DNA of 32,460 bases, taken from NCBI GenBank assembly GCA_020435885.1, contig JAGQYU010000067.1, positions 1 to 32,460 of the forward strand, read 5' to 3'. Positions 10,688 through 27,554 of this stretch are shown piece by piece (the first letter of the stretch is position 1; every line of letters starts with the position of its first letter). The notes beneath the pieces were generated by a model, which ran no database searches, had not been told where the DNA came from, and saw only the letters and a program-made list of their open reading frames with translations. The translations under genes and the position numbers were made by a program. The DNA is from Flavobacteriaceae bacterium. Lineage in GTDB: Bacteria; Bacteroidota; Bacteroidia; Flavobacteriales; Flavobacteriaceae.

Positions 10688-10885
10688 TTATTTCCTATTT
10701 AAATTAGAATAAGTTTGTTCACCTAATGTGTCTGCTAATGGAAAACTGTAAGTGGTTTTTTCAGATTTTTCCACATTCCCTAACATTTTAATAGTTTCAT
10801 CAAATCTGGAAATCTGCTCGAACTTATTTTTTTCCTCTTTAGTCTTATTGACTATTTGCTCTACAAGTTTTGCTATATTTTCCAT
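10688..10885 (-). CDS. Small hypothetical protein (65 aa, MENIAKL...), probably co-transcribed with the SDH protease
   Basis: ATG at 10885 lies 10 nt after the protease stop; charged helical sequence. The ORF-track start at 10945 overlaps the upstream gene. Confidence 0.6.
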   Translation of the reverse strand: MENIAKLVEQIVNKTKEEKNKFEQISRFDETIKMLGNVEKSEKTTYSFPLADTLGEQTYSNLNRK

Positions 10886-10895
10886 AAATACAAAT

Positions 10896-11756
10896 TTATA
10901 TAAATTTTCTTGTGTGAAAAAACATTTCTCCGTTATTTCGACCAATATATTGGCATATTAGGTCGTTATATTCTCTAATAATTTTAGTTAAAATAGGCTC
11001 CCCTGAATAATCTTCGATTTTGAGTTTTAGTATATGAGTTAAAGCCGACACCCCTATTGAACGACCATGAGAGTGCCATATTTTGTTATCTCCTAAATCT
11101 CTTGCAATTTCTGTAGCTCTATCCTCTTTTTCTTTCAATGTTACAGGATTTCCTGTCGAATTATGAGTGTTCCAATTTTTAAACTTATATTTTACTAACC
11201 ATTCTTTTAAAAGTGCAATTGTTAAGTCTCTGGCTTGTTCGTGTCTTCTCAACATAGCTAAATCTTGTTCTCTTAACATTATCAACTCTGCTTGTGAAAT
11301 TGTTCCTGCAATTGATTTATTTATTAATTCTTCCACTTTGTCAAGATAACCTAAAGCTGGCACCCAATTTTTTCCATTATATACTTGTGGGTCAATTGGT
11401 CCAAGAGAAGATGAGTAGTCCATATAAATAGCATCTCCCGATAGACAAAATATTGTTCCAGCTGAATATGCTGCATCAGGAACTATGAAGTTTACAGTCT
11501 GATAATGATGTCGAGTTATTTTAACTAATCTTTCGACAGTTTCAGCACTACCTCCAGGCGTGTTAAGCATTATAAATAAAGTATCCTTTGTGTCAGGTTC
11601 AGCTTTTAATTCTTCTACCAAATCTCTAAAAGGTTTGTCAAGAGAATCAGTTATAGGGCCATAATAAAATAAAAAGTCCGAATCAAAATGATTTTCAAGT
11701 TCTCCTAATCTTTTGTTTAGGATTTCGTGCAATGTTGAATCAAATATTGGTTTCAT
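10896..11756 (-). CDS. SDH-family (serine dehydrogenase proteinase) ClpP/crotonase-fold serine protease
   Basis: LNTPGG, AYSAGT nucleophile Ser, SLGPIDPQ, WHSHGRSI motifs. Confidence 0.85.
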   Translation of the reverse strand: MKPIFDSTLHEILNKRLGELENHFDSDFLFYYGPITDSLDKPFRDLVEELKAEPDTKDTLFIMLNTPGGSAETVERLVKITRHHYQTVNFIVPDAAYSAGTIFCLSGDAIYMDYSSSLGPIDPQVYNGKNWVPALGYLDKVEELINKSIAGTISQAELIMLREQDLAMLRRHEQARDLTIALLKEWLVKYKFKNWNTHNSTGNPVTLKEKEDRATEIARDLGDNKIWHSHGRSIGVSALTHILKLKIEDYSGEPILTKIIREYNDLICQYIGRNNGEMFFHTRKFI

Positions 11757-15677: not shown

Positions 15678-16730
15678 TTAGAACTTAACTTGAACTTGCA
15701 TTAACAAGGCACTGTCGTAGCTGCTAACACCAGGTTCAACGTAGTATTCATAGTTAAGTTGCACTCTTGTTTTATCGTTAAAGAAGTAATTCAAACCAAA
15801 GGTCATTAATTCTTGGTATCCTAATATTTTGGTATCAAGGTCTGCATCAAAATATTCATATTTGAATACTGGGTGCAATTTACTGTCTTCAGGAGCATAC
15901 CAAGCCATTAGATAGGCACCTTGTCTTTGTTCTCCTAATTCCATTGGAGTTGATCCGCAACCACCTTCTGCAGCTCTGTTATAATCACCTTCATCATGGA
16001 TATATTCACCTTGTAAGTTAAAGCCTTTGTAGTTTAACTGAGCTTCAAAACCGTAAGTAGTACGATCATTATCATCATTGTTTGGATATCCGTAACGGAA
16101 GCTGGCACCCACTGACATAAAGTCGAACAATTTATAATTGGCACGTCCTATAACGTCTTTTTTATTGTTGTTGTCTTTAATTCCTAATCCTCTACCATTC
16201 ATTAAAGCTAATGCATAACGGAACTTATCATTTTTACCAAGTATTGTTGCTCCGATGTCTCTTTGAGGAGATACTAATTGATTAGAAACGATTGATCTGT
16301 TAATAGTTGTTAAGCCATGGCAAGGAGTTTCTACTTCTAAACCAAAAGGTTGTTTGAATGAACCCATAGAAACTTTAAACATATCACTTTTTGTATAGGT
16401 TACAAAAGCGTCTAATAAGTACACATTACCGTCAGAAGCGATAAAATCACTAGCTTCTAGCATTACATAGTAAGAAAAACTACGGCTAACTTTACCACGT
16501 ACACCTAAACGAGCTCTTTTAAAGTAGAAAGAGTTGTCATTGTCAGGATCAGCAAAATGATAGTCATATTCAGGTTGAAAGAAACCGAATACTACTGGAG
16601 TCATATTATTTGCTCCGGCAGCAGCGCCACTTGCTGGAGCAGCATCATCCTCACAACCTTGAGCAAAGGAATTTGTAGAAAATAATAGAGAAACTGCCAG
16701 AGCAAATAGAAATATTATTCTTGTTTTCAT
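15678..16730 (-). CDS. Outer-membrane porin, OprO/OprP (anion-selective)-like, with three Cys
   Basis: Signal peptide ending SFA-Q, FKRARLGVRG, LLDAFV, GSFKQPFGLE, amphipathic beta strands, terminal VQVKF. Confidence 0.85.
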   Translation of the reverse strand: MKTRIIFLFALAVSLLFSTNSFAQGCEDDAAPASGAAAGANNMTPVVFGFFQPEYDYHFADPDNDNSFYFKRARLGVRGKVSRSFSYYVMLEASDFIASDGNVYLLDAFVTYTKSDMFKVSMGSFKQPFGLEVETPCHGLTTINRSIVSNQLVSPQRDIGATILGKNDKFRYALALMNGRGLGIKDNNNKKDVIGRANYKLFDFMSVGASFRYGYPNNDDNDRTTYGFEAQLNYKGFNLQGEYIHDEGDYNRAAEGGCGSTPMELGEQRQGAYLMAWYAPEDSKLHPVFKYEYFDADLDTKILGYQELMTFGLNYFFNDKTRVQLNYEYYVEPGVSSYDSALLMQVQVKF

Positions 16731-16847: not shown

Positions 16848-17843
16848 TTATTGAACTAACGGTAAAGATTTAGGTTTGCTATCAACTCCCCATTGGTTAC
16901 TTGAAAATGCACTATTGGAGTTGTACATACCATTCATACCAAAAGTTAAGCTATAGGCGTCATAACCTAGTACTCTTAAACATGCTGTAACCACAGCAGA
17001 AGTTTGTCCTGTATAACAATAGGTAACAACTTTAGCTTCAGGGTCTAATCCTCTATAACTGTTATCAGCTAATGTTAATGGATTGATTCTGTAAGCTCCA
17101 TTGATGTGGCCAAAACCAGTATAATCAGCAGAACTAAAGAAGTTGTTTATAAAGTAATTATTTGGGCTATTTAAGACATCTGTACCTTTAACAGTTTTGA
17201 AGCCTTCTTGCACAGCTAGCTCAACACGGCTTTTTAAAATATTTTCTCCAATTGTTGATAAACTAGATATTTCTGGATCATCATATACATTGTTTGATGG
17301 GGCTGCACCGTATGACCAATTTGCATGGCCATTAGCTTCATTACCAACAGCATTGTTCCATGCATAAGCAGTATTTTCATTCCAACCAGACATACCCCAT
17401 TTCAATGCTTGAGTGTTAGAATAACCATACATACGCATCAAAGCAGTTGCATAACATGCAGTTTGTCCTGTATAACAAACAACCAAAGCTGGTTTACCGG
17501 CAGCTTGTGCAGCAGCACCTTCAGTAAGAATATTAGCAAAAGCTACATTCTTAGCTCCAGCAATATGTCCTTTAGTTGTAAAATCAGCCGCACTTCTAAT
17601 ATCAATTATATAGTATTTGTTTAAGAAAGCATCTAGATCAGCATCAGCTGGAGCTCCAGCGACAAAGTTTATACCATTGTTTATTACTTTATTGATATCA
17701 AGATCATTTGTTATCATATAATCTTTCATGGTTGTAAACGCCGGTGTAATAGTAGTTTCCGGTGTATCACCTTGATCACATGATGTTAAGAATAGTGAAG
17801 GAATCAGTAAGAGTCCTATTAAGATTAAATGTAACCTTTTCAT
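16848..17843 (-). CDS. Tandem-domain rhodanese (sulfurtransferase) lipoprotein
   Basis: Lipobox LTSC; IIDIR..GHIAGA and GHINGA; two active loops CYTGQT. Confidence 0.9.
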   Translation of the reverse strand: MKRLHLILIGLLLIPSLFLTSCDQGDTPETTITPAFTTMKDYMITNDLDINKVINNGINFVAGAPADADLDAFLNKYYIIDIRSAADFTTKGHIAGAKNVAFANILTEGAAAQAAGKPALVVCYTGQTACYATALMRMYGYSNTQALKWGMSGWNENTAYAWNNAVGNEANGHANWSYGAAPSNNVYDDPEISSLSTIGENILKSRVELAVQEGFKTVKGTDVLNSPNNYFINNFFSSADYTGFGHINGAYRINPLTLADNSYRGLDPEAKVVTYCYTGQTSAVVTACLRVLGYDAYSLTFGMNGMYNSNSAFSSNQWGVDSKPKSLPLVQ

Positions 17844-17888
17844 AATTAGTTTGTTTTGATTATTATTATTTTATAGATTCAGTTTTTA

Positions 17889-18878
17889 TTATTCTACTAC
17901 TGGGAAATTTTTGATCTCGTCTTTAGAGAAACCATTCCAGCCTTTTTCTACTAAAGTTTTGTTCATATAACCATTAGCACCGTAGGCTAAATTGGCTACG
18001 TCATAACCTAGTACTTGTAAGTAAGCTACTACATAGGCTGCATGTTGCCCTGTTAAACAATTAACAAGAACTTTTTTATCAGTAGGTAGTGTATAAAGAT
18101 CTTCAGTTGAAGAAAGAGATTTATTCGGTTGATATAACACGGCACCTTTAACATGGCCTGTATTATATTGTTCTTCATTCATATAATTTACTACATAGTA
18201 ATCTGATGGATTTTCAACAGCTACATCAGGGTTTACAACAAATTCTTTATAAGGTTTTGCAAAAGCTTCAACTATGCGTTGTTGTAAAATATCTTTAGCC
18301 TCTGTTTTACCGGTGTTTATTGTAGGAACATTTCCTTTTTCAGGCATTGGATTTGCAGTAGTTTCTAATTTATCTGAATAATCATTTGCAGTATTTTTTG
18401 TCCAGATGTTTGCTGCAAAATCATCAGCCCAAGAGCTCATTCCCCATTTAAGGTTGTATACGTTGTTATATCCGTATAGTCTTAGTAAACTGGTGTAGTA
18501 AGCTGCTGATTGACCTGAATAACATACAATAGTAATTTTATCGTATGCAGTTGGGTCAATTTCATTTTGAAAATACTCTAGTAATTTTGGGCCTTCTACA
18601 TTTTTAGCATTTTTAATATGTCCGTAAGAGAACCAGCTATCGCTTCTAATATCAAGAACTAAATATTTATCATTCTTAAGATTATCTTTGATCTCTTCTG
18701 GAGTAATAATGGCAGGAGCCATATCACTATTGATAAAGTTTCCGTTTGCTTCAAGATAGGCAACTAATTTTCCAAATTCTGAAGTAGGATCTACATCCTG
18801 TTGTTGTATACTTTTAAAACCGCTGAATACTACAGCAGCCATAAAAAGCAAGATAAAATATGATTTAATGTTTTTCAT
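17889..18878 (-). CDS. Exported tandem-domain rhodanese (sulfurtransferase)
   Basis: N-terminal signal/anchor; LDIR..GHIKNA and GHVKGA; active loops CYSGQS and CLTGQH. Confidence 0.9.
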   Translation of the reverse strand: MKNIKSYFILLFMAAVVFSGFKSIQQQDVDPTSEFGKLVAYLEANGNFINSDMAPAIITPEEIKDNLKNDKYLVLDIRSDSWFSYGHIKNAKNVEGPKLLEYFQNEIDPTAYDKITIVCYSGQSAAYYTSLLRLYGYNNVYNLKWGMSSWADDFAANIWTKNTANDYSDKLETTANPMPEKGNVPTINTGKTEAKDILQQRIVEAFAKPYKEFVVNPDVAVENPSDYYVVNYMNEEQYNTGHVKGAVLYQPNKSLSSTEDLYTLPTDKKVLVNCLTGQHAAYVVAYLQVLGYDVANLAYGANGYMNKTLVEKGWNGFSKDEIKNFPVVE

Positions 18879-19147: not shown

Positions 19148-19176
19148 AAAAAACTGCTTCTAAGAAGCAGTTTTTT
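19148..19176 (-). terminator. Intrinsic terminator ending the psr operon
   Basis: AAAAAACTGCTTC-TAA-GAAGCAGTTTTTT. Confidence 0.88.
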
Positions 19177-19194: not shown

Positions 19195-19806
19195 TTAACA
19201 ACCACCTTCAACCGGCAGTTTTTTCTTTTTCTTAACCGGAACAACTTGTTTAACCGGAGCAGGTTTTACTTCTTTTATAACAGGTTTTGCATTAGCTTCT
19301 TCAGCTTTTTTAACACTGTTATCAATAAAACCTTTTATATCTGCCACAGCAGTTTCTATGGTGGCAGGTTCTGTAATTAATTTATTATGGTCATAACTGT
19401 TTTTAACAGCCAAAACCTTTACATTACTATAACCTAGCTGGCGTAAAAGTATTAACGGAGTAACGGCATCATTAGGAGTATTTCCATAAAGAACTATGTT
19501 ATCCTTGGTTTTGAATACATTAATAGATTCATCTGTTAACAAATCAGTAACAGGGATATTAATAGCTCCCTCTAAATGGCCTTTTTCATATTCATATTGA
19601 TTTCTAATATCAATAAGCTCAGTGCCTTCAGTCACATCTTTTTGGGCAATAATATAAGTATCTGCTGTTAGCTCAGTAAGTGCTTTTTTTGTGTCAACAA
19701 CATACATGTTTTTGGGTCTTTTAAAAGATAAGATACCAACAAGTACTACTAGTATGGTTAATACAGCAGCTATAGATATTCTTTTAGTTTTTTCTAACTC
19801 TTTCAT
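19195..19806 (-). CDS. Membrane-anchored rhodanese-fold protein lacking the catalytic Cys, with C-terminal GGC tail
   Basis: N-terminal TM helix; LIDIR..GHLEGAINIP; active-loop position IVLYGNT has no Cys; only Cys is the last residue. Confidence 0.85.
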   Translation of the reverse strand: MKELEKTKRISIAAVLTILVVLVGILSFKRPKNMYVVDTKKALTELTADTYIIAQKDVTEGTELIDIRNQYEYEKGHLEGAINIPVTDLLTDESINVFKTKDNIVLYGNTPNDAVTPLILLRQLGYSNVKVLAVKNSYDHNKLITEPATIETAVADIKGFIDNSVKKAEEANAKPVIKEVKPAPVKQVVPVKKKKKLPVEGGC

Positions 19807-19883
19807 AAAAGTCTATTTTTTAAGTTTACTTAACAACCTCCTTCAACGGGTAGTTTTTTCTTTTTCTTAACCGGAACAACTTG
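19195..19883 (-). repeat. 54-nt direct repeat (19195-19248 and 19830-19883) encoding QVVPVKKKKKLPVEGGC-stop
   Basis: 51 of 54 nt identical by manual alignment; all three differences are synonymous third positions. Confidence 0.95.
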
Positions 19884-20495
19884 TGTTGGAGCTGCTTTTT
19901 TAGGTTCAACTTTTACAGGTTTAGCCACTTGATCCGGATAGGCAACACCAAAATACATACTGGCTGCTTTTCTAGTATTATACAACTCAAAATCATTTGC
20001 AGGCATTTCTTCTGTTGGCACAGGAGGATTTATAATAGTGCTGTACCACTCATTTACACCACCTTTTAACACTTTAAGATTTTTGTATCCTAAACGGTTA
20101 CCAAACATCCATGCCTGGTCTGCATAAAAATTATCATCAGAAATAAATACTACGTTATATTGATCTTGATTGATATAAGATTTGTTATCATCGTCTAACA
20201 ATTTTGCTAACGGAATATTTACTGAATTAGGAATACTATATTTTGTAAAATCATCTTCACTTCTAACATCTATCAATAAATAAGAAGGATCTTGATTGAT
20301 AAGTACATCTGCTAATTTATCTGTAGAGATATATCTCTGTGGATTAATAGCATTACTCAACAGTTTTTCAGGAACAATACCTTCATGTTTTTGATATTTT
20401 GGCAACAGTACCAATCCGGCTGCCAAAAGAATAAAAATGGCTGCCAAAATCATATATCTGAATGAAAGTACTTTTACTACATTTCTATTTACCAT
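19830..20495 (-). CDS. Second membrane-anchored rhodanese-fold protein lacking the catalytic Cys, with identical C-terminal GGC tail
   Basis: N-terminal TM helix; LLIDVR..SIPNSVNIP, LKGGVNEW; active-loop position VVFISDD has no Cys; only Cys is the last residue. Confidence 0.85.
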   Translation of the reverse strand: MVNRNVVKVLSFRYMILAAIFILLAAGLVLLPKYQKHEGIVPEKLLSNAINPQRYISTDKLADVLINQDPSYLLIDVRSEDDFTKYSIPNSVNIPLAKLLDDDNKSYINQDQYNVVFISDDNFYADQAWMFGNRLGYKNLKVLKGGVNEWYSTIINPPVPTEEMPANDFELYNTRKAASMYFGVAYPDQVAKPVKVEPKKAAPTQVVPVKKKKKLPVEGGC

Positions 20496-20512: not shown

Positions 20513-21103
20513 TTAATAGAAGACTTTTTTGACCCTTTTACGGATTTGGTCTGACAAAGCAAAAATTACTACAGCTGCTACTGTAAGTATAAATACAAAC
20601 CAATAAGGAGAAACTCCTAACGAATCCATTAAAGTTATATTACCTTCAAAATATCCGTTATAAATTGGTTCGAATAGGGTGTAAGCTTCTGAAAAGATAA
20701 ACACACCTATCATTATACCTAAGACATAAATCATTGCATCAATTTTGCCAATGGCAACTGCACATAGGCTGGTTCCGGGGCAAAAACCTCCGGCAACAAA
20801 TCCTACACCCATAATAGCTCCGCCAATAATGGCTCCCCATAAATAAGTTGGATGAATGTATAGTTTTGAAATATCTAAATATCCTAGATAATCCATGTAT
20901 AAAAGTCCTATAATGGCAGTCAAAGCAGCAGTAAAGAATACTTTAAGAACGGCAAAGTCGTATCCGTAAAATACTCCGGCAAGTTTTCTTGAAGATGAGA
21001 ATCCTGACGATTCTAAAATAAACCCGAAAGCTATACCTATTATTATTGCGATGACGTTGTTCCATTCATAGGGAATGATATCATTTGGAATTAATGGTCC
21101 CAT
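20513..21103 (-). CDS. YeeE/YedE family sulfur-compound transporter half-protein
   Basis: GIAFGFILE, GGAIMGVG..GGFCPGT motif, multiple TM helices. Confidence 0.88.
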   Translation of the reverse strand: MGPLIPNDIIPYEWNNVIAIIIGIAFGFILESSGFSSSRKLAGVFYGYDFAVLKVFFTAALTAIIGLLYMDYLGYLDISKLYIHPTYLWGAIIGGAIMGVGFVAGGFCPGTSLCAVAIGKIDAMIYVLGIMIGVFIFSEAYTLFEPIYNGYFEGNITLMDSLGVSPYWFVFILTVAAVVIFALSDQIRKRVKKVFY

Positions 21104-21124: not shown

Positions 21125-21655
21125 TTAAATCCAGTTTTTTCTAAAGAAATACGCTACTAAATACCCAGTGCCAAATATGGCTAGCATGGTTATAAAACCT
21201 CCGGTTGAAAGTACGGCCATTCCGCTAAGAGCGGCACCACTTGTACATCCGCGGGCAATTTGAGCTCCTAAGCCAAATAAAACACCACCACCAAGAGCAA
21301 ACCAAAGTCTTCTTCTGCTAGTTATTTTTGGTGAATGTTGTACTCTCCAACCAATTCTTCCTGCTAAACCACCGGAAATGAAAGCACCTATCAATACTCC
21401 CAAAGTTTCTAATACTAACCAGTTATTTAAAGTTGACTTGTCATCATCAATAAATTTGCTGTAATAAGCATTCTTTTCGGCATGCTCAGGAGTTACAGTA
21501 TCTACAATAGCAACCACACTACTTTTCATGGCTCCACTGGCACCTAAACCTCTACCGGTTATATAAAAAGTAAAGATGATTAAGATACCGAGCAAGAAAC
21601 CACCAAAGTAGGGGTTCCAGTATATGTGTTTATTTTGTTCTTTATGATTTTCCAT
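21125..21655 (-). CDS. YeeE/YedE family sulfur-compound transporter half-protein
   Basis: GLGASG, GGVLFGLGAQIARGCTSG motif, multiple TM helices. Confidence 0.88.
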   Translation of the reverse strand: MENHKEQNKHIYWNPYFGGFLLGILIIFTFYITGRGLGASGAMKSSVVAIVDTVTPEHAEKNAYYSKFIDDDKSTLNNWLVLETLGVLIGAFISGGLAGRIGWRVQHSPKITSRRRLWFALGGGVLFGLGAQIARGCTSGAALSGMAVLSTGGFITMLAIFGTGYLVAYFFRKNWI

Positions 21656-21668
21656 AATAATCTTCAGT

Positions 21669-22610
21669 TTAATATAAATATCTGGTTATTTGTCCGGCTT
21701 CTACCATTACAAATCTAAATACCAATCCGCCAATTAAAACCAATATAGCAGGGATTGCTACCGGCACTTTAAAGCCTACAAGTTCTGTAAGTTCCATAAC
21801 AGCAGGAACTAAAAGGCCTAGTATTACTACAAAGCCAAAGAACATCAATGTAAATTCTCCACCTACCAATAATTGCATAGCTTCCAATTGTACTTCAGAA
21901 CCTGCATACATACCCATTAGCATGTGTATGATAAGCCCAAGTTCTACAATAATTAAAACCAAGTCAATTTTACCAAACAGGTGTTTTTCTTTAGCTGTTT
22001 TAGCCATTAAGATGATGGCTGCAGCCCCAGTTGAAAGCCCCGATGTTAAGAATAAAGGTCCTAAAATAGCATTGTTCCACAATGGACGTGCATTGAATGC
22101 TGATAGTAAGATGCCAGTATAAATACCCAATACTATTGATAATGGTATGAAAGCCATTGCCATATACTTTCTGTTCTTAGCTAAAAATGCTTCCAGTTTT
22201 TGAAACCAATTGAATTTGATGTTCCATTTAGGGAACATTTCTTTCCAATAACTAATCACCCATAAAAATGACATAGGTGTAGTTACCAATAATACCCAAG
22301 CACCCCAAGACATTGGCGATTCTATACGTACAGTCATGTACAGTTGCCAAGCATATAAAGGATGTTTAAGGTCATAAATCAATGCCAATAAACCTAAAGA
22401 TAGTGCTATAGGAGGTATAATAGAGGCATATTTAACTACTGTTGGATATTCTTTATCCTTTTCCATCAAAGTGATTATGGCCATAAAGAATAATAATCCG
22501 GCAGCCAGTCCACCTAAGAATAGGTAAACTGATATAGGCCAGTGCCAAATCTCTAAAGACGGATCTATATGAGGAATGTTTCTACCGCTTGTAAAAAGTT
22601 CTTCTTGCAT
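21669..22610 (-). CDS. psrC: Polysulfide/thiosulfate reductase membrane subunit, NrfD/PsrC family
   Basis: WHWPISVYLFLGGLAAG, SPMSWGAW, YTGILLS..RPLW; about 8 TM helices. Confidence 0.9.
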   Translation of the reverse strand: MQEELFTSGRNIPHIDPSLEIWHWPISVYLFLGGLAAGLLFFMAIITLMEKDKEYPTVVKYASIIPPIALSLGLLALIYDLKHPLYAWQLYMTVRIESPMSWGAWVLLVTTPMSFLWVISYWKEMFPKWNIKFNWFQKLEAFLAKNRKYMAMAFIPLSIVLGIYTGILLSAFNARPLWNNAILGPLFLTSGLSTGAAAIILMAKTAKEKHLFGKIDLVLIIVELGLIIHMLMGMYAGSEVQLEAMQLLVGGEFTLMFFGFVVILGLLVPAVMELTELVGFKVPVAIPAILVLIGGLVFRFVMVEAGQITRYLY

Positions 22611-22624
22611 GATCTAGTTGAATT

Positions 22625-23158
22625 TTAAATTAAATAAAATACATGAGGTTTAGTACCTGCTTCGGGTGCTAATGTTTTCCATGTTCTGTTTTTCAGTAAT
22701 TGAGAGACTTCACTGTTAGGATCGTCTAAATCACCAAAATACATACACTTGGTTGGACAAACGGATACACACGCAGGTTGCTGACCTTTCTCTACTCTAT
22801 GATGGCAGAAGGTACATTTATCAACATATCCTTCAGGGTGTGAATAACGTGCATCATAAGGGCAAGACTGTATACAAGCACCACAACCAATACATTCATT
22901 GGGGGTTACTAAAACTATTCCGCCTTCAACAATGTGGCTGGCGCCTGTTGGGCAGCATCTTACGCAAGGAGCGTTGTCGCAATGGTTACACCTTTCGGAT
23001 TTTAGTTCTAATTCTACATTTGGATAAGCACCGTTAACGGTTTCTGTTATCCAGTCTCTACAATATCCTATAGGTACATTATTCTCTGTTTGACAAGCAA
23101 CAACACAATCGCTACATCCAACACATTTAAGTGTGTCTATTACCATTGCATATCTCAT
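22625..23158 (-). CDS. psrB: Polysulfide/thiosulfate reductase 4x[4Fe-4S] electron-transfer subunit
   Basis: CVGCSDCVVAC, CNHCDNAPCVRCCP, CIGCGACIQSCP, CTFC..CVSVCP; ATGA overlap with psrA. Confidence 0.92.
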   Translation of the reverse strand: MRYAMVIDTLKCVGCSDCVVACQTENNVPIGYCRDWITETVNGAYPNVELELKSERCNHCDNAPCVRCCPTGASHIVEGGIVLVTPNECIGCGACIQSCPYDARYSHPEGYVDKCTFCHHRVEKGQQPACVSVCPTKCMYFGDLDDPNSEVSQLLKNRTWKTLAPEAGTKPHVFYLI

Positions 23159-25401
23159 ATCGCTGTATTTTTGTTTGGATTTTCAGTTAAAAACTTAACA
23201 AAGTTACCTCTCATACCTGTTCCTCCCATCAATGGGTCTATGGTAACTTTTGTAATTAGGTGGGTATCATTGGCGCCTTTTGCATAAGCTCTGGAAAGCT
23301 TTTTGTTGTTATGCCCAAAACCATGATACATATAAACGGAATCCCAACGGATACGTTCGGTTACCCTTACTTTGATTGGGAATGTAGATATAATACCGTC
23401 TTGATTTTCTAACCAAACTTCCTGACCATTTTTAAGTCCTTCAATTCTTGCAACTTTAGGGTTAACCCAAAGATTGTTCTCATCTTTCAAGTCATTTAGG
23501 TTAGGGTTATTGATGGTTCTACTGAATGTATGCATTGGAGAACGCCCGTAATTAAGCCTGTAAAAACCTTGAGCGGGTTGCTCATGAGGTGTATAAACAG
23601 GCATAGGATCGTGTCCTAATGATTTTAATTTTTCTGAATAGAACTCAATTTTTCCTGTTGGAGTTGTAAACTCATAATCTTGACCATCAGTTAAATACAT
23701 AGGGCCAGATTTTCTTTTGAAGTTCTTAACTCCAATTTTTTCCATTTCTTCTAATGAAGTTCCCATTTGTTCTAACTGCCAAGCTATTACTTCTTTATAA
23801 TCATTATAGTTGAAGTATTCTCCTAAACCAAGCTTTTCACCAATTTGTTTAGATATCCACCATGCAGGTTTAGATTCAAATCTAGGTTCTGCAGCAGGCA
23901 TCCTCAAGGCAATAGAAGGTTCTCTATTAGTAGAAGAGCGGATACCATCATAGCGTTCTAAATAAGTACATTCTGGTAATACCACGTCAGCATAACCGGT
24001 TATTTCCATTGGCATGGTATCCATAACAACCATAAAATCTAATGACTCTATAGCTTTTTCAATAACCTCACGTTGTGGAACGGTACTTACTAAATTAGTA
24101 CCTGCAACAAACCAGCCTTTTATAGGATGTTCTTCATTTTCACCAGGAATGGTAGCTTTTATAACTTCATTGGTAATACCCATTTGTGCTAACGGATATT
24201 TTTCACCAATTTGTTCCCATCCCCACTTAGGAGTTGGATAAGGTGGATGTGGGAATGAAGGTACTTTTATACTTTCTTTAAAGTAGAAACCACCACGTCT
24301 TCCCCAAGAACCTAGTAAACCATTTAATATGGCAATAGCTCTTGAACGTTGCGTATCATCGCCGTACCATGTTACGTGTCTTCCAGGATGTACAATTACT
24401 GATGGAGCAGCGGCGGCCATAGATCTGGCAGTTCTTCTGATATCATCAGGTTTTATAGTTGTAATGCTGTAAGCCCACTCAGGGGTGAAAGTTCTGACAT
24501 GTTCTTTTAATTGATCAAAACCATGTCCGTATTTTTCAACATATTTTTTATCGTATAGTTCTTCATAGATCAATACATGCATCCACGAAAGTAGTAAGGC
24601 AATATCAGTAGCAGGTTTAATAGCTAACCAATATTGTGATTTACTGGCCGCTGTTGAAAAACGAGGGTCTACAGTTATAATGGTAGCACCGTTGTCAATA
24701 GCATCAGACATTTCTTGTACTTGGGTATTGTGCATGTTTTCGCCAATGTGGGAACCGATTAGCACCAAACATTTGGTATCTCTAATATCGGTTGGTTCTG
24801 GTGAACCTACCCAAGAACCGAAAGTTAATCCGAAACCGGTTTCTCTTGGTCCTCTACATTGTGCGTAAGCAGGCTCAGCAACGGTATCAGAACCGTAAGC
24901 TTGGAACAAATGTTCTAAGTGGCTTCCGGGTGATCCGTGTTTAAGTAATGCCATACTTTCAGCACCATACTTGTCTTTTATTTCCTGCATTTTAGAAGCA
25001 ACCAATGTAAGGGCTTCTTCCCAGCTGGCTTCTCTAAAAGTTTCTTCACCGTCAACGGTTGTTCTGATTAGAGGTGTTTTTAAGCGGTCATTGTCAGAAT
25101 ACATTCCTACTCCGCCTGTTCCTCTAGGGCATAAACGACCATTACAGTGTGGGTCAGATTCGTTTCCTATTATTTTTTGAATGTTGTTATCTTCATCAGT
25201 GTAAGCCCAAGCAGCACACTTCCAGAAACATACTTCGCAATAGGTTGCTGATCTTTTTAAGTTTTTTGTGGCATTTATTAATCCTTTTTCGGTTTTAACA
25301 GAAAAATTATTTCCTAATGCATTTAGTGCGGGAGTAGTCAAAGCTAAACCCCCAGCACCTAGTGCTGAAATCTTAATAAATGTTCTCCTTGAATTATTCA
25401 T
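23155..25401 (-). CDS. psrA: Mo-bisPGD catalytic subunit of polysulfide/thiosulfate reductase (PsrA/PhsA clade)
   Basis: Tat signal SRRTFIK; FS0 motif CEVCFWKC..C; Mo-ligand region AQCRGPRE and PGRHVTWYGDDTQR resembling Thermus thermophilus PsrA. Confidence 0.88.
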   Translation of the reverse strand: MNNSRRTFIKISALGAGGLALTTPALNALGNNFSVKTEKGLINATKNLKRSATYCEVCFWKCAAWAYTDEDNNIQKIIGNESDPHCNGRLCPRGTGGVGMYSDNDRLKTPLIRTTVDGEETFREASWEEALTLVASKMQEIKDKYGAESMALLKHGSPGSHLEHLFQAYGSDTVAEPAYAQCRGPRETGFGLTFGSWVGSPEPTDIRDTKCLVLIGSHIGENMHNTQVQEMSDAIDNGATIITVDPRFSTAASKSQYWLAIKPATDIALLLSWMHVLIYEELYDKKYVEKYGHGFDQLKEHVRTFTPEWAYSITTIKPDDIRRTARSMAAAAPSVIVHPGRHVTWYGDDTQRSRAIAILNGLLGSWGRRGGFYFKESIKVPSFPHPPYPTPKWGWEQIGEKYPLAQMGITNEVIKATIPGENEEHPIKGWFVAGTNLVSTVPQREVIEKAIESLDFMVVMDTMPMEITGYADVVLPECTYLERYDGIRSSTNREPSIALRMPAAEPRFESKPAWWISKQIGEKLGLGEYFNYNDYKEVIAWQLEQMGTSLEEMEKIGVKNFKRKSGPMYLTDGQDYEFTTPTGKIEFYSEKLKSLGHDPMPVYTPHEQPAQGFYRLNYGRSPMHTFSRTINNPNLNDLKDENNLWVNPKVARIEGLKNGQEVWLENQDGIISTFPIKVRVTERIRWDSVYMYHGFGHNNKKLSRAYAKGANDTHLITKVTIDPLMGGTGMRGNFVKFLTENPNKNTAI

Positions 25402-25480
25402 AAGTTATAAATATTGAGACTGTAATTGCATCAAAGGTTGTAATATATTGTCATATAAATGACTGTAATAATTTACGAAA

Positions 25481-25685: not shown

Positions 25686-27554
25686 GTGAAAGTTTTAAAG
25701 AAAGAAGTTTTGCCGTTTTTGATGCTTATCGTTGTGATAGGAGCCTACTTTATTTTTAGAAATGTAAAGTTAACTGATGCTGTTTTTAAAGATGGAGATA
25801 ATTATTCTTCGGTAAAAACTGATAAAGAATCTTGTTTACAATGCCATGCTCAGATGACGGGTTTTTCAAAATACCATGATCCAAACAATATTGGATGTGC
25901 AAGTTGCCATTTAGGCGATATAAATTCTACAGATAAAGATGAAGCACATAAAGATATGGTGCTTATCCCCGGGAATTTATCTGATGCAGAAAAGACTTGT
26001 GGTAAGTGTCATATCAATGAACTCAAAAAAATAAATACTTCGTTAATGACAACCAATAGTGGTATTGTTGCAGTTGATAAATTCATTTTCGGTGAGGCGG
26101 ATTCGCCAAATTATCACTACCATATAAAAGATATACAACAATCCCCGGCTGATAAACATCTGCGAGATCTCTGCGCCAATTGCCATTTAGGGGCAGAAAA
26201 AAAAGAATTTGGAGGCATAACGGAGCTGAGTAGAGGAGGCGGTTGCAACGCTTGTCATTTAAACTATTCTGAAAGTGCTACAAAAGGTTTGGCAGAATAC
26301 TTAAGCTCTAGCAAAAAGGAGTTGCCAAAAGTACATCCGTCCACAGATATTTTTGTAAAGGATGAGCATTGTTACGGTTGTCATAGCCGTTCTAGCAGAA
26401 TTTCTACTAATTATCAAGGCTGGTACGAAACACTATTGGATGAAGAAGATGTTGTTGGAGATACAAATTATAAAGTGGCTGAAGATAAACGTGTGTATGG
26501 TTTTATGGGGGAAGATGTGCATCATGCAAAAGGGATGCTATGTATTGATTGTCATTCTTCACATGAAGTGATGGGAGATGGAAAAACTTACACACACGAG
26601 GAAGATGCTGTGCATGTACAATGTTCTGATTGTCATATAAAAGAAAAACCAAACACATTGTCATATAACGAGTTAGATACAGAATCGTCATTGGTTTTTT
26701 TGCATAGAGATTATAAACATACCGATAAGCAACTACTTAAAGTTAAAAAAGACGGACATCCTTTGGTGAATACATATTTGGATGAAGATGGTGAGCTGTA
26801 TTTGCTAAGCAAAAAGGATGGAACAAAACATTTAATAAAAAAGCAACCTGATGTTTGTGCCAGAGATGTGGCTCATTCTAATGTAACGTGTGCAGCCTGT
26901 CACTCGCAGTGGACATCCAGATGTATCGGCTGTCACAACACTTTTGATAAAAATGATAAAGGTTTTGATCTATTAGACAGAAAAGATATTACAGGCAAAT
27001 GGTCTGAGCATGTTTTTGAGTTTTCTGCAGAGAGGCCTGCACTTGGTGTACGGAAAGACAGTACAGGCTATACCATTGAACCTGCCGTACCGGGGATGAT
27101 ATTGACTATAGATCATCAAAGTTTTAGCGGAGATGTAAATGATAAAACAGCATTCCACAGATTATATGCGCCTAATTCTCCTCATACAACCAGTAAAGAG
27201 GTAAGAGATTGTAAATCGTGTCATGCAAATCCGATGGCAATTGGCTACGGAAAAGGAACGTTGCTTTATAAAGATGGAGTTTGGAATTTTACACCGGAAT
27301 ATGCTCAAAATCCAAATGATGGACTGCCGGAAGATGCTTGGGTGCCATTTTTAGAAGAGCCTAAAGCTAAAGTACTTTCTACAAGGACTAATTTTAAACC
27401 TTTTACTGTTGATCAACAGAAAAGAATTCTGTTGGTTGGTGCTTGTTTGCAATGCCATAAAGATGATTCTAAAGTAATGCAGCAAACTTTATATGAAGGT
27501 TTAGATGTGGTACTTAAAAATATAAGTAAACAATGTATATTGCCTAAACAATGA
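25686..27554 (+). CDS. Membrane-anchored multiheme cytochrome c (12 CxxCH motifs)
   Basis: GTG start, N-terminal TM helix, 12 CxxCH counted by eye; -7 element TAGTTTTG at 25656-25663. Confidence 0.92.
   Translation: MKVLKKEVLPFLMLIVVIGAYFIFRNVKLTDAVFKDGDNYSSVKTDKESCLQCHAQMTGFSKYHDPNNIGCASCHLGDINSTDKDEAHKDMVLIPGNLSDAEKTCGKCHINELKKINTSLMTTNSGIVAVDKFIFGEADSPNYHYHIKDIQQSPADKHLRDLCANCHLGAEKKEFGGITELSRGGGCNACHLNYSESATKGLAEYLSSSKKELPKVHPSTDIFVKDEHCYGCHSRSSRISTNYQGWYETLLDEEDVVGDTNYKVAEDKRVYGFMGEDVHHAKGMLCIDCHSSHEVMGDGKTYTHEEDAVHVQCSDCHIKEKPNTLSYNELDTESSLVFLHRDYKHTDKQLLKVKKDGHPLVNTYLDEDGELYLLSKKDGTKHLIKKQPDVCARDVAHSNVTCAACHSQWTSRCIGCHNTFDKNDKGFDLLDRKDITGKWSEHVFEFSAERPALGVRKDSTGYTIEPAVPGMILTIDHQSFSGDVNDKTAFHRLYAPNSPHTTSKEVRDCKSCHANPMAIGYGKGTLLYKDGVWNFTPEYAQNPNDGLPEDAWVPFLEEPKAKVLSTRTNFKPFTVDQQKRILLVGACLQCHKDDSKVMQQTLYEGLDVVLKNISKQCILPKQ

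Follow-up and report, generated by a model that had tools for sequence, protein, structure and literature searches.

Membrane-anchored rhodanese-fold proteins with a conserved terminal cysteine, encoded beside a split YeeE/YedE channel, are candidate periplasmic sulfur carriers in Bacteroidota

Two adjacent genes on the minus strand of the window (the whole stretch of 32,460 nucleotides analysed here; features are on the minus strand unless stated otherwise) encode proteins of similar build. Protein A (19195..19806, 203 amino acids) consists of a transmembrane (TM) anchor, a rhodanese fold with Gly at the catalytic position, a linker and a terminal EGGC. Protein B (19830..20495, 221 amino acids) has a TM anchor, a rhodanese fold with Ser119 at that position, an extra helix, a linker and again a terminal EGGC. 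A hydropathy scan predicted one TM helix in each, at residues 10-28 of A (19723..19779) and residues 14-32 of B (20400..20456), the latter being a helix in the structural model as well. Both proteins scored above the cut-off of the Pfam family Rhodanese PF00581 (E 5.8e-13 for A and 1.9e-14 for B), and a Foldseek search with the AlphaFold model of B returned rhodaneses (E down to 4.4e-5). This model is of modest confidence (mean pLDDT 60.6), with the tail as a low-confidence coil, and was used for fold and tail disorder only. No NCBIfam model reached its cut-off for A or B, ESM Atlas matches were to rhodanese clusters without names, and the closest named relatives are Lutibacter proteins (64-69% identity).

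The position of the rhodanese catalytic Cys is taken by Gly108 in A (19483..19485, by alignment) and by Ser119 in B (20139..20141), which aligns with the catalytic Cys in homologue alignments and with that of solved rhodaneses. Among the best 120 homologues listed for each protein, Ser was found there in 120/120 for B and Gly in 113/120 for A; of 127 aligned rows from distant representatives, two had Cys at this position. The sole Cys of A is its last residue, as is that of B, and the C-terminal 17 residues, QVVPVKKKKKLPVEGGC, are shared by both. The tail DNA, 17 codons and a stop at 19195..19248 in A and 19830..19883 in B, is identical at 48 of 51 sense bases, and all three differences are synonymous. 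An earlier note on this DNA had described this anatomy (TM anchor, rhodanese loop without Cys, common 17-residue end), and it was borne out at this very place. Its description of the terminal residue as the only Cys holds for the A and B of the window and fails for the B family: in 108 of 120 B homologues a further Cys is found at position 132, which is not part of the active loop. The two proteins, which the note called otherwise divergent, are not unrelated either: judged by sequence comparison they are old paralogues, 32% identical over 211 columns. Body identity between A and B was 28.6% within genomes and 28.0% between them, and 24 of 25 A bodies fell into one clade with support 1.0, the 25th being a mis-extracted sequence. 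The equal identity and the single A clade rule out a recent whole-gene duplication as the source of the pair.

The gene for B follows those for the two halves of a YeeE/YedE channel, which in turn follow a set of reductase genes. By profile and motif, 20513..21103 encodes a PmpB-like N-terminal half with Cys108 as the equivalent of C91 and no equivalent of C22, and by profile and alignment 21125..21655 encodes a PmpA-like C-terminal half. Further upstream lie genes for a PsrC/NrfD-type membrane subunit (21669..22610) and a PsrB-type iron-sulfur subunit (22625..23158), both named by profile matches, and for a PsrA/PhsA-type molybdoenzyme with a twin-arginine signal (23155..25401; best NCBIfam match PhsA, below cut-off). 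A terminator-like hairpin of 13 pairs directly after A (19148..19176, by consensus match only) is likely the end of a psrABC-yeeE-yeeE-B-A unit. The order psrA-psrB-psrC-yeeE-yeeE-B-A is kept in 80 related loci (yeeE N-half in 78, A in 78, psrA in 69), and gene losses are mostly at contig ends. A real exception is L073 (7845-10185), apparently a decaying operon: the YeeE pair and B are present, psrA is not found within 9 kb, and A is cut to 171 residues and lacks its tail. A divergent plus-strand gene for an ExtM-like multiheme cytochrome with 12 CxxCH motifs (25686..27554) adjoins the operon in 65/80 loci. Two exported tandem-domain rhodaneses that keep the active-loop Cys (16848..18878) are accessory, being found in 44/80 and 49/80 loci, as is an OprO/P-like (ExtI-like) porin with three Cys (15678..16730). 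The note had proposed that the tail might dock on this porin; the porin is present in only 43/80 loci and lies beyond the hairpin that directly follows A, which argues against such docking. The porin may have a cysteine relay of its own, with a Gly-Cys-(Glu/Asp) just after the predicted signal cleavage in 42/42 listed homologues and an internal GGC in 40/42.

Several observations concern the wider window and its genome. A promoter scan found 16 candidates, with 27.5 expected by chance. Contigs from RNA libraries of one wastewater study covered A, B and the psr genes in part and the divergent cytochrome to a small extent, which falls short of proof of expression; in three runs of that study they end at 25450-25453, about 50 bases upstream of psrA, a weak hint at what is possibly a transcript start. 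A plasmid search gave two partial matches. A gene for an SDH-family ClpP-like protease (10688-11756, minus strand), with a small overlapping ORF and beside a G+C dip, looks like acquired cargo. Elsewhere in the genome, a second YeeE-type gene set lies directly before moaA (G000:C115, 378-2414). The genome also encodes MoaA and sulfate-assimilation genes, and an SQR-like gene adjoins a persulfide-dioxygenase-like gene (both named by eye); sulfane sulfur could thus be both made and consumed in the host. No TorD-type chaperone was found in this genome, which is 87% complete.

We asked how well the tail is conserved. An EGGC end was present in 120/120 B homologues (the best of 600) and 120/120 A homologues (the best of 643), so that the terminal Cys is invariant among the 240 closest homologues. 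For a more distant set we took the best 150 representatives at 50% clustering, kept the 126 of single-domain length and excluded 24 by length; Cys was the last or second-last residue in 122 of the 126. It lay within the final three residues in 62/62 complete ORFs from phylum-wide regions, and a Cys followed by a single residue forms the end of 119 of 120 fusion homologues, among which no selenocysteine variant was seen. The charge of the linker, in contrast, varies: among 122 distant homologues 87 linkers were basic, 19 intermediate and 16 acidic, and a run of at least four Lys/Arg occurred in 61/122 tails. The Cys, not the Lys run, is thus the constant of the tail, and the 16 acidic tails speak against the suggestion that the Lys run is essential for attracting anions.

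The tails of A and B are matched to each other within genomes. The shared end is more than chance: of the 1804 ORFs of at least 150 amino acids in the genome, just one further real pair has its last 17 residues in common. We compared the tails in the 74 of 80 loci where both genes are complete, and found the last 17 residues identical in 18, as opposed to 0.9% of between-genome pairs; mean identity was 14.4/17 within genomes and 11.7/17 between. At the variable positions A/B identity was 0.57-0.82 within a genome versus 0.24-0.42. Positions 7 to 5 from the end matched in 50/74 loci, across 14 different motifs. Within versus between genomes, codon identity at shared residues was 0.64 versus 0.56 for tails and 0.50 versus 0.48 for bodies. 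These patterns suggest repeated gene conversion, selection for a common docking partner, or both; A and B likely have docking partners in common, which would keep the tail of A in step with that of B.

To see what accompanies the arm more widely, we surveyed 401 Bacteroidota genomes sampled from throughout the phylum, 73 of which contained a match, with 81 matches in total; since related loci are not independent, these and the following counts are descriptive. By coordinates, a YeeE C-half lies within 2 kb upstream of 75/81 matches, and in the 60 regions around the 81 matches a YeeE half is directly upstream or fused in 59. Conversely, the arm lies downstream of 72 of 76 strong matches to this YeeE subfamily; two of the other four had an arm on inspection and two are near contig ends. 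Moreover, we found 24 complete natural fusions of YeeE to the domain. The linkage to sulfur genes that the note expected is therefore upheld, most firmly by the channel: psrA lies upstream of the arm in 29/81 matches only, and the constant partner is the split YeeE/YedE channel, not PsrA or the porin. Operons were of three types, with psrABC, with an octaheme cytochrome and a YeeE::domain fusion (four octahemes passed TIGR04315, tetrathionate reductase, the others being assigned by size and position), or with a secreted active tandem rhodanese (about 10 regions). Every upstream partner is a sulfur-compound enzyme, either Psr/Phs, an octaheme matching TIGR04315 or a secreted active rhodanese. 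A tandem A-B pair was found in only 3 of the 73 genomes with a match, which does not support the idea of a required heterodimer; B is the copy that occurs throughout the phylum and would be the widespread carrier, and A is a second copy in a few lineages. Named isolates with homologues belong to Lutibacter, Algibacter and Mariniflexile. One match, L176, is an orphan fragment. The arm is not required by every Psr, since a PsrA family (f37, in 23/86 genomes; two regions inspected) has neither the arm nor this YeeE type. In one f37 locus, L188, the arm-less psrABC adjoins an SQR-like gene (named by eye).

The YeeE of S. thermophila has C293 in the lining of its periplasmic binding site and C22 towards the cytoplasm (PMC7449682). 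The C-half of the window aligns with residues 238-329 of that protein (PDB 6LEO, 8J4C), which places Cys137 at C293. The C91 motif was present in 134/135 N-halves and the C293 motif in 134/134 C-halves; no Cys was found at the C22 position in the 133 N-halves that matched the pattern. A GGC recurs at the functional Cys of YeeE. The arm, too, is likely to face the periplasm, as the note had predicted. Net charge before the TM helix exceeds that after it in 94/126 homologues, with 19 ties, which favours an N-in orientation (the bias of A by itself is weak). A lipobox is present in 4/126 homologues, and the YeeE::domain fusion adds one TM helix past the basic C-terminus of the YeeE N-half. A complex prediction of the YeeE C-half, YeeE N-half and B scored 0.06 (mark 0.32) and counts neither for nor against contact.

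The tail is portable across different proteins. In L093 three consecutive proteins carry a common tail, among them an active tandem rhodanese lipoprotein, and in L189 a GGC end is found on an active single-domain rhodanese lipoprotein. In L186 (2354-4687) and L190-L197, PhsA-type catalytic subunits carry an acidic tail ending in EGC and are followed by a fusion of a cytochrome b subunit to the YeeE C-half. Across 79 metagenome loci found with the L186 subunit, an EGC end was present in 8/59 complete PhsA-type subunits, and seven of these eight are the closest relatives of that in L186; that these enzymes carry their own tail of the same kind lends indirect support to a contact between the arm and PsrA. 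Four of these loci (L192 5318-5593, L193, L195 and L197) encode proteins of 92-133 amino acids in which a TM anchor is joined by nothing but a linker to an EGC end, with no rhodanese domain. They sit in the gene position of B, after the YeeE N-half, and have a matching, acidic tail. The rhodanese domain thus looks dispensable, and the arm may be the working part. As separate observations, the second tandem rhodanese of L017 and L049 has gained a short PGCD tail absent from its orthologues, and 13 small secreted ExtJ-like proteins near PhsA end in (A/S)GC (L200 238-552, L207 10305-10601 and 11 more loci; the ExtJ cut-off was passed by 2 of 5 scanned), suggesting that ExtJ is a cysteine-tipped carrier too.

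The invariant Cys, the linkage and fusion to YeeE and the portable tail together support the role of carrier arm that the note had assigned to these proteins. From the sequence data we consider it fairly probable that the terminal thiol is a periplasmic carrier, moving sulfane sulfur between the mouth of YeeE and the reductase. The terminal Cys of A and B would be the tip of a swinging arm on a membrane anchor, loaded covalently as a persulfide or polysulfide, and would pass sulfur between the outer mouth of the split YeeE channel, where it may contact Cys137, and the molybdenum site of PsrA. The dead rhodanese domain might serve as a spacer or as a cradle for the loaded tip. Our best guess for the window operon is that PsrABC uses electrons from quinol to turn the sulfur on the arm into sulfide and that YeeE swaps sulfane sulfur with the membrane or cytoplasm; where an operon has no reductase, the direction may reverse.

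A broader reading, to which we give rather less than even weight, is that the (G/E)GC end with its charged, floppy linker is a portable tag for carrying sulfur in the periplasm, that a large clade of Psr/Phs and octaheme reductases really acts on arm-bound sulfane sulfur, and that the arm is the missing periplasmic first cysteine of YeeE channels. The tag would have been grafted onto dead rhodaneses, bare anchors, YeeE halves, active rhodaneses, ExtJ and PhsA, matched within each genome, and its use would resemble that of lipoyl or phosphopantetheine arms. Free polysulfide or tetrathionate would then not be the reductases' real substrate. Points against a carrier are the arm-less Psr enzymes, the failure to find a chaperone, the orphan in L176 and the absence of psrA from L073; besides, a portable tail matched within genomes is also expected of a docking or modification tag. 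Growth of Lutibacter profundi was reported not to be stimulated by thiosulfate (PMC5219744), and Caldithrix abyssi was described as having psr genes, yet no sulfur or thiosulfate respiration (PMC5317091), reports that count against the carrier only if these strains carry the operon.

Two identical arms side by side, matched within genomes, might alternatively act on each other. The arm of DsrC forms a disulfide or trisulfide, and the two tails could be a redox pair of this kind, reduced by the reductase or YeeE and shuttling electrons or bridged sulfur; the similar acidic tails on both PhsA and the mini-protein in L192-L197 would fit. We think this unlikely, as most genomes have one copy per operon, so that a homodimer would be needed, and the second Cys of B is not universal. 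Next comes the possibility, also rather doubtful, that the module does not carry respiratory substrate and instead deals with selenium or tellurium oxyanions or a thiophilic metal, or provides the sulfur needed in reductase maturation. The porin, the multiheme cytochrome and the small GC-ended proteins resemble ExtI, ExtM and ExtJ of a Geobacter cluster linked to selenite and tellurite (PMC5877670), the YeeE halves weakly match selenium-linked YedE models, and the second YeeE-type set is next to moaA. However, the same arm occurs in octaheme or rhodanese operons without a molybdoenzyme, and all Ext matches of window proteins are below cut-off. Least likely, the tail is a docking or modification tag for a protease, acyltransferase or binding partner, its Cys anchoring or assembling a complex, as its spread over unrelated folds and the within-genome matching at variable positions could indicate, but TM helices or lipids already anchor the proteins, none of the genes in the conserved order could be recognised as coding for a modifying enzyme, and GGC is also found at the functional Cys of YeeE and in the porin.

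No published description of the proposed sulfur-carrying arm was found in the main texts of openly licensed PMC papers and bioRxiv; A and B are real and conserved, and probably an undescribed variant of cysteine-arm sulfur carriers. The presentation of sulfur to YeeE-type channels on the periplasmic side is, according to the account in PMC11582611, still only modelled, and possession of Psr does not guarantee growth on free sulfur compounds (PMC5219744, PMC5317091). With one invariant terminal Cys, present in named isolates, both the channel-loading and the Psr-growth question become accessible to a one-codon test. The module is common, as its frequency in the sampled genomes indicates, and a carrier arm would mean a hidden step of sulfur cycling in marine and wastewater heterotrophs.

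The arm can be set beside several known systems. The Geobacter extHIJKLMNOPQS cluster likewise brings rhodanese, porin and multiheme genes together, and ExtJ-like proteins occur near PhsA in related loci; the Ext-like proteins of the window, however, stay under the Ext thresholds. ExtJ is described as a protein of unknown function, in passages of PMC5877670 that do not mention a terminal Cys. PmpA and PmpB form a two-gene YeeE with one conserved Cys per half, C91 and C293 (PMC11582611), and the YeeE halves of the window carry both equivalents, but they are longer (176 and 196 amino acids versus about 130) and have a dedicated tethered arm alongside. The Cys of YeeD/TsuB is described as a 'fourth cysteine' that extends the cysteine relay of YeeE on the cytoplasmic face (PMC11073785). 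Like A and B, YeeD is a small single-Cys partner encoded beside YeeE and sometimes fused to it. A and B have the rhodanese fold and are predicted on the other side of the membrane, whereas YeeD, a cytoplasmic TusA-like protein, meets C22, a residue without an equivalent in the YeeE type found with A and B; no TusA match was found in the 87% complete genome. With active rhodaneses A and B share the fold, and they fail the criterion of the catalytic Cys. Sud is a periplasmic polysulfide-sulfur transferase, proposed to deliver polysulfide sulfur to Psr, and is not known to have a terminal Cys arm or a TM anchor. A and B resemble the Sud of Wolinella succinogenes (PDB 1QXN) in their single rhodanese domain (profile match E 4.3e-6) and in their predicted periplasmic location, but Sud uses the active-loop Cys where they have Gly or Ser. 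The swinging arm and GGC motif of SoxY have been described (PMC11237559), and A and B are similar in their predicted export and in a C-terminal Gly-Gly-Cys on a flexible arm, some relatives even ending in GGCG. The SoxY domain PF13501 had no match in A, B or the 87% complete genome (a control genome was positive), and no sox family was found among the 16 window proteins scanned, the operon being psrABC-yeeE. A and B differ from SoxY in their rhodanese fold, their membrane tether, a Cys that is usually the very last residue, and their partners, YeeE and reductases. We infer that they would be functional analogues of SoxY or Sud and members of neither family.
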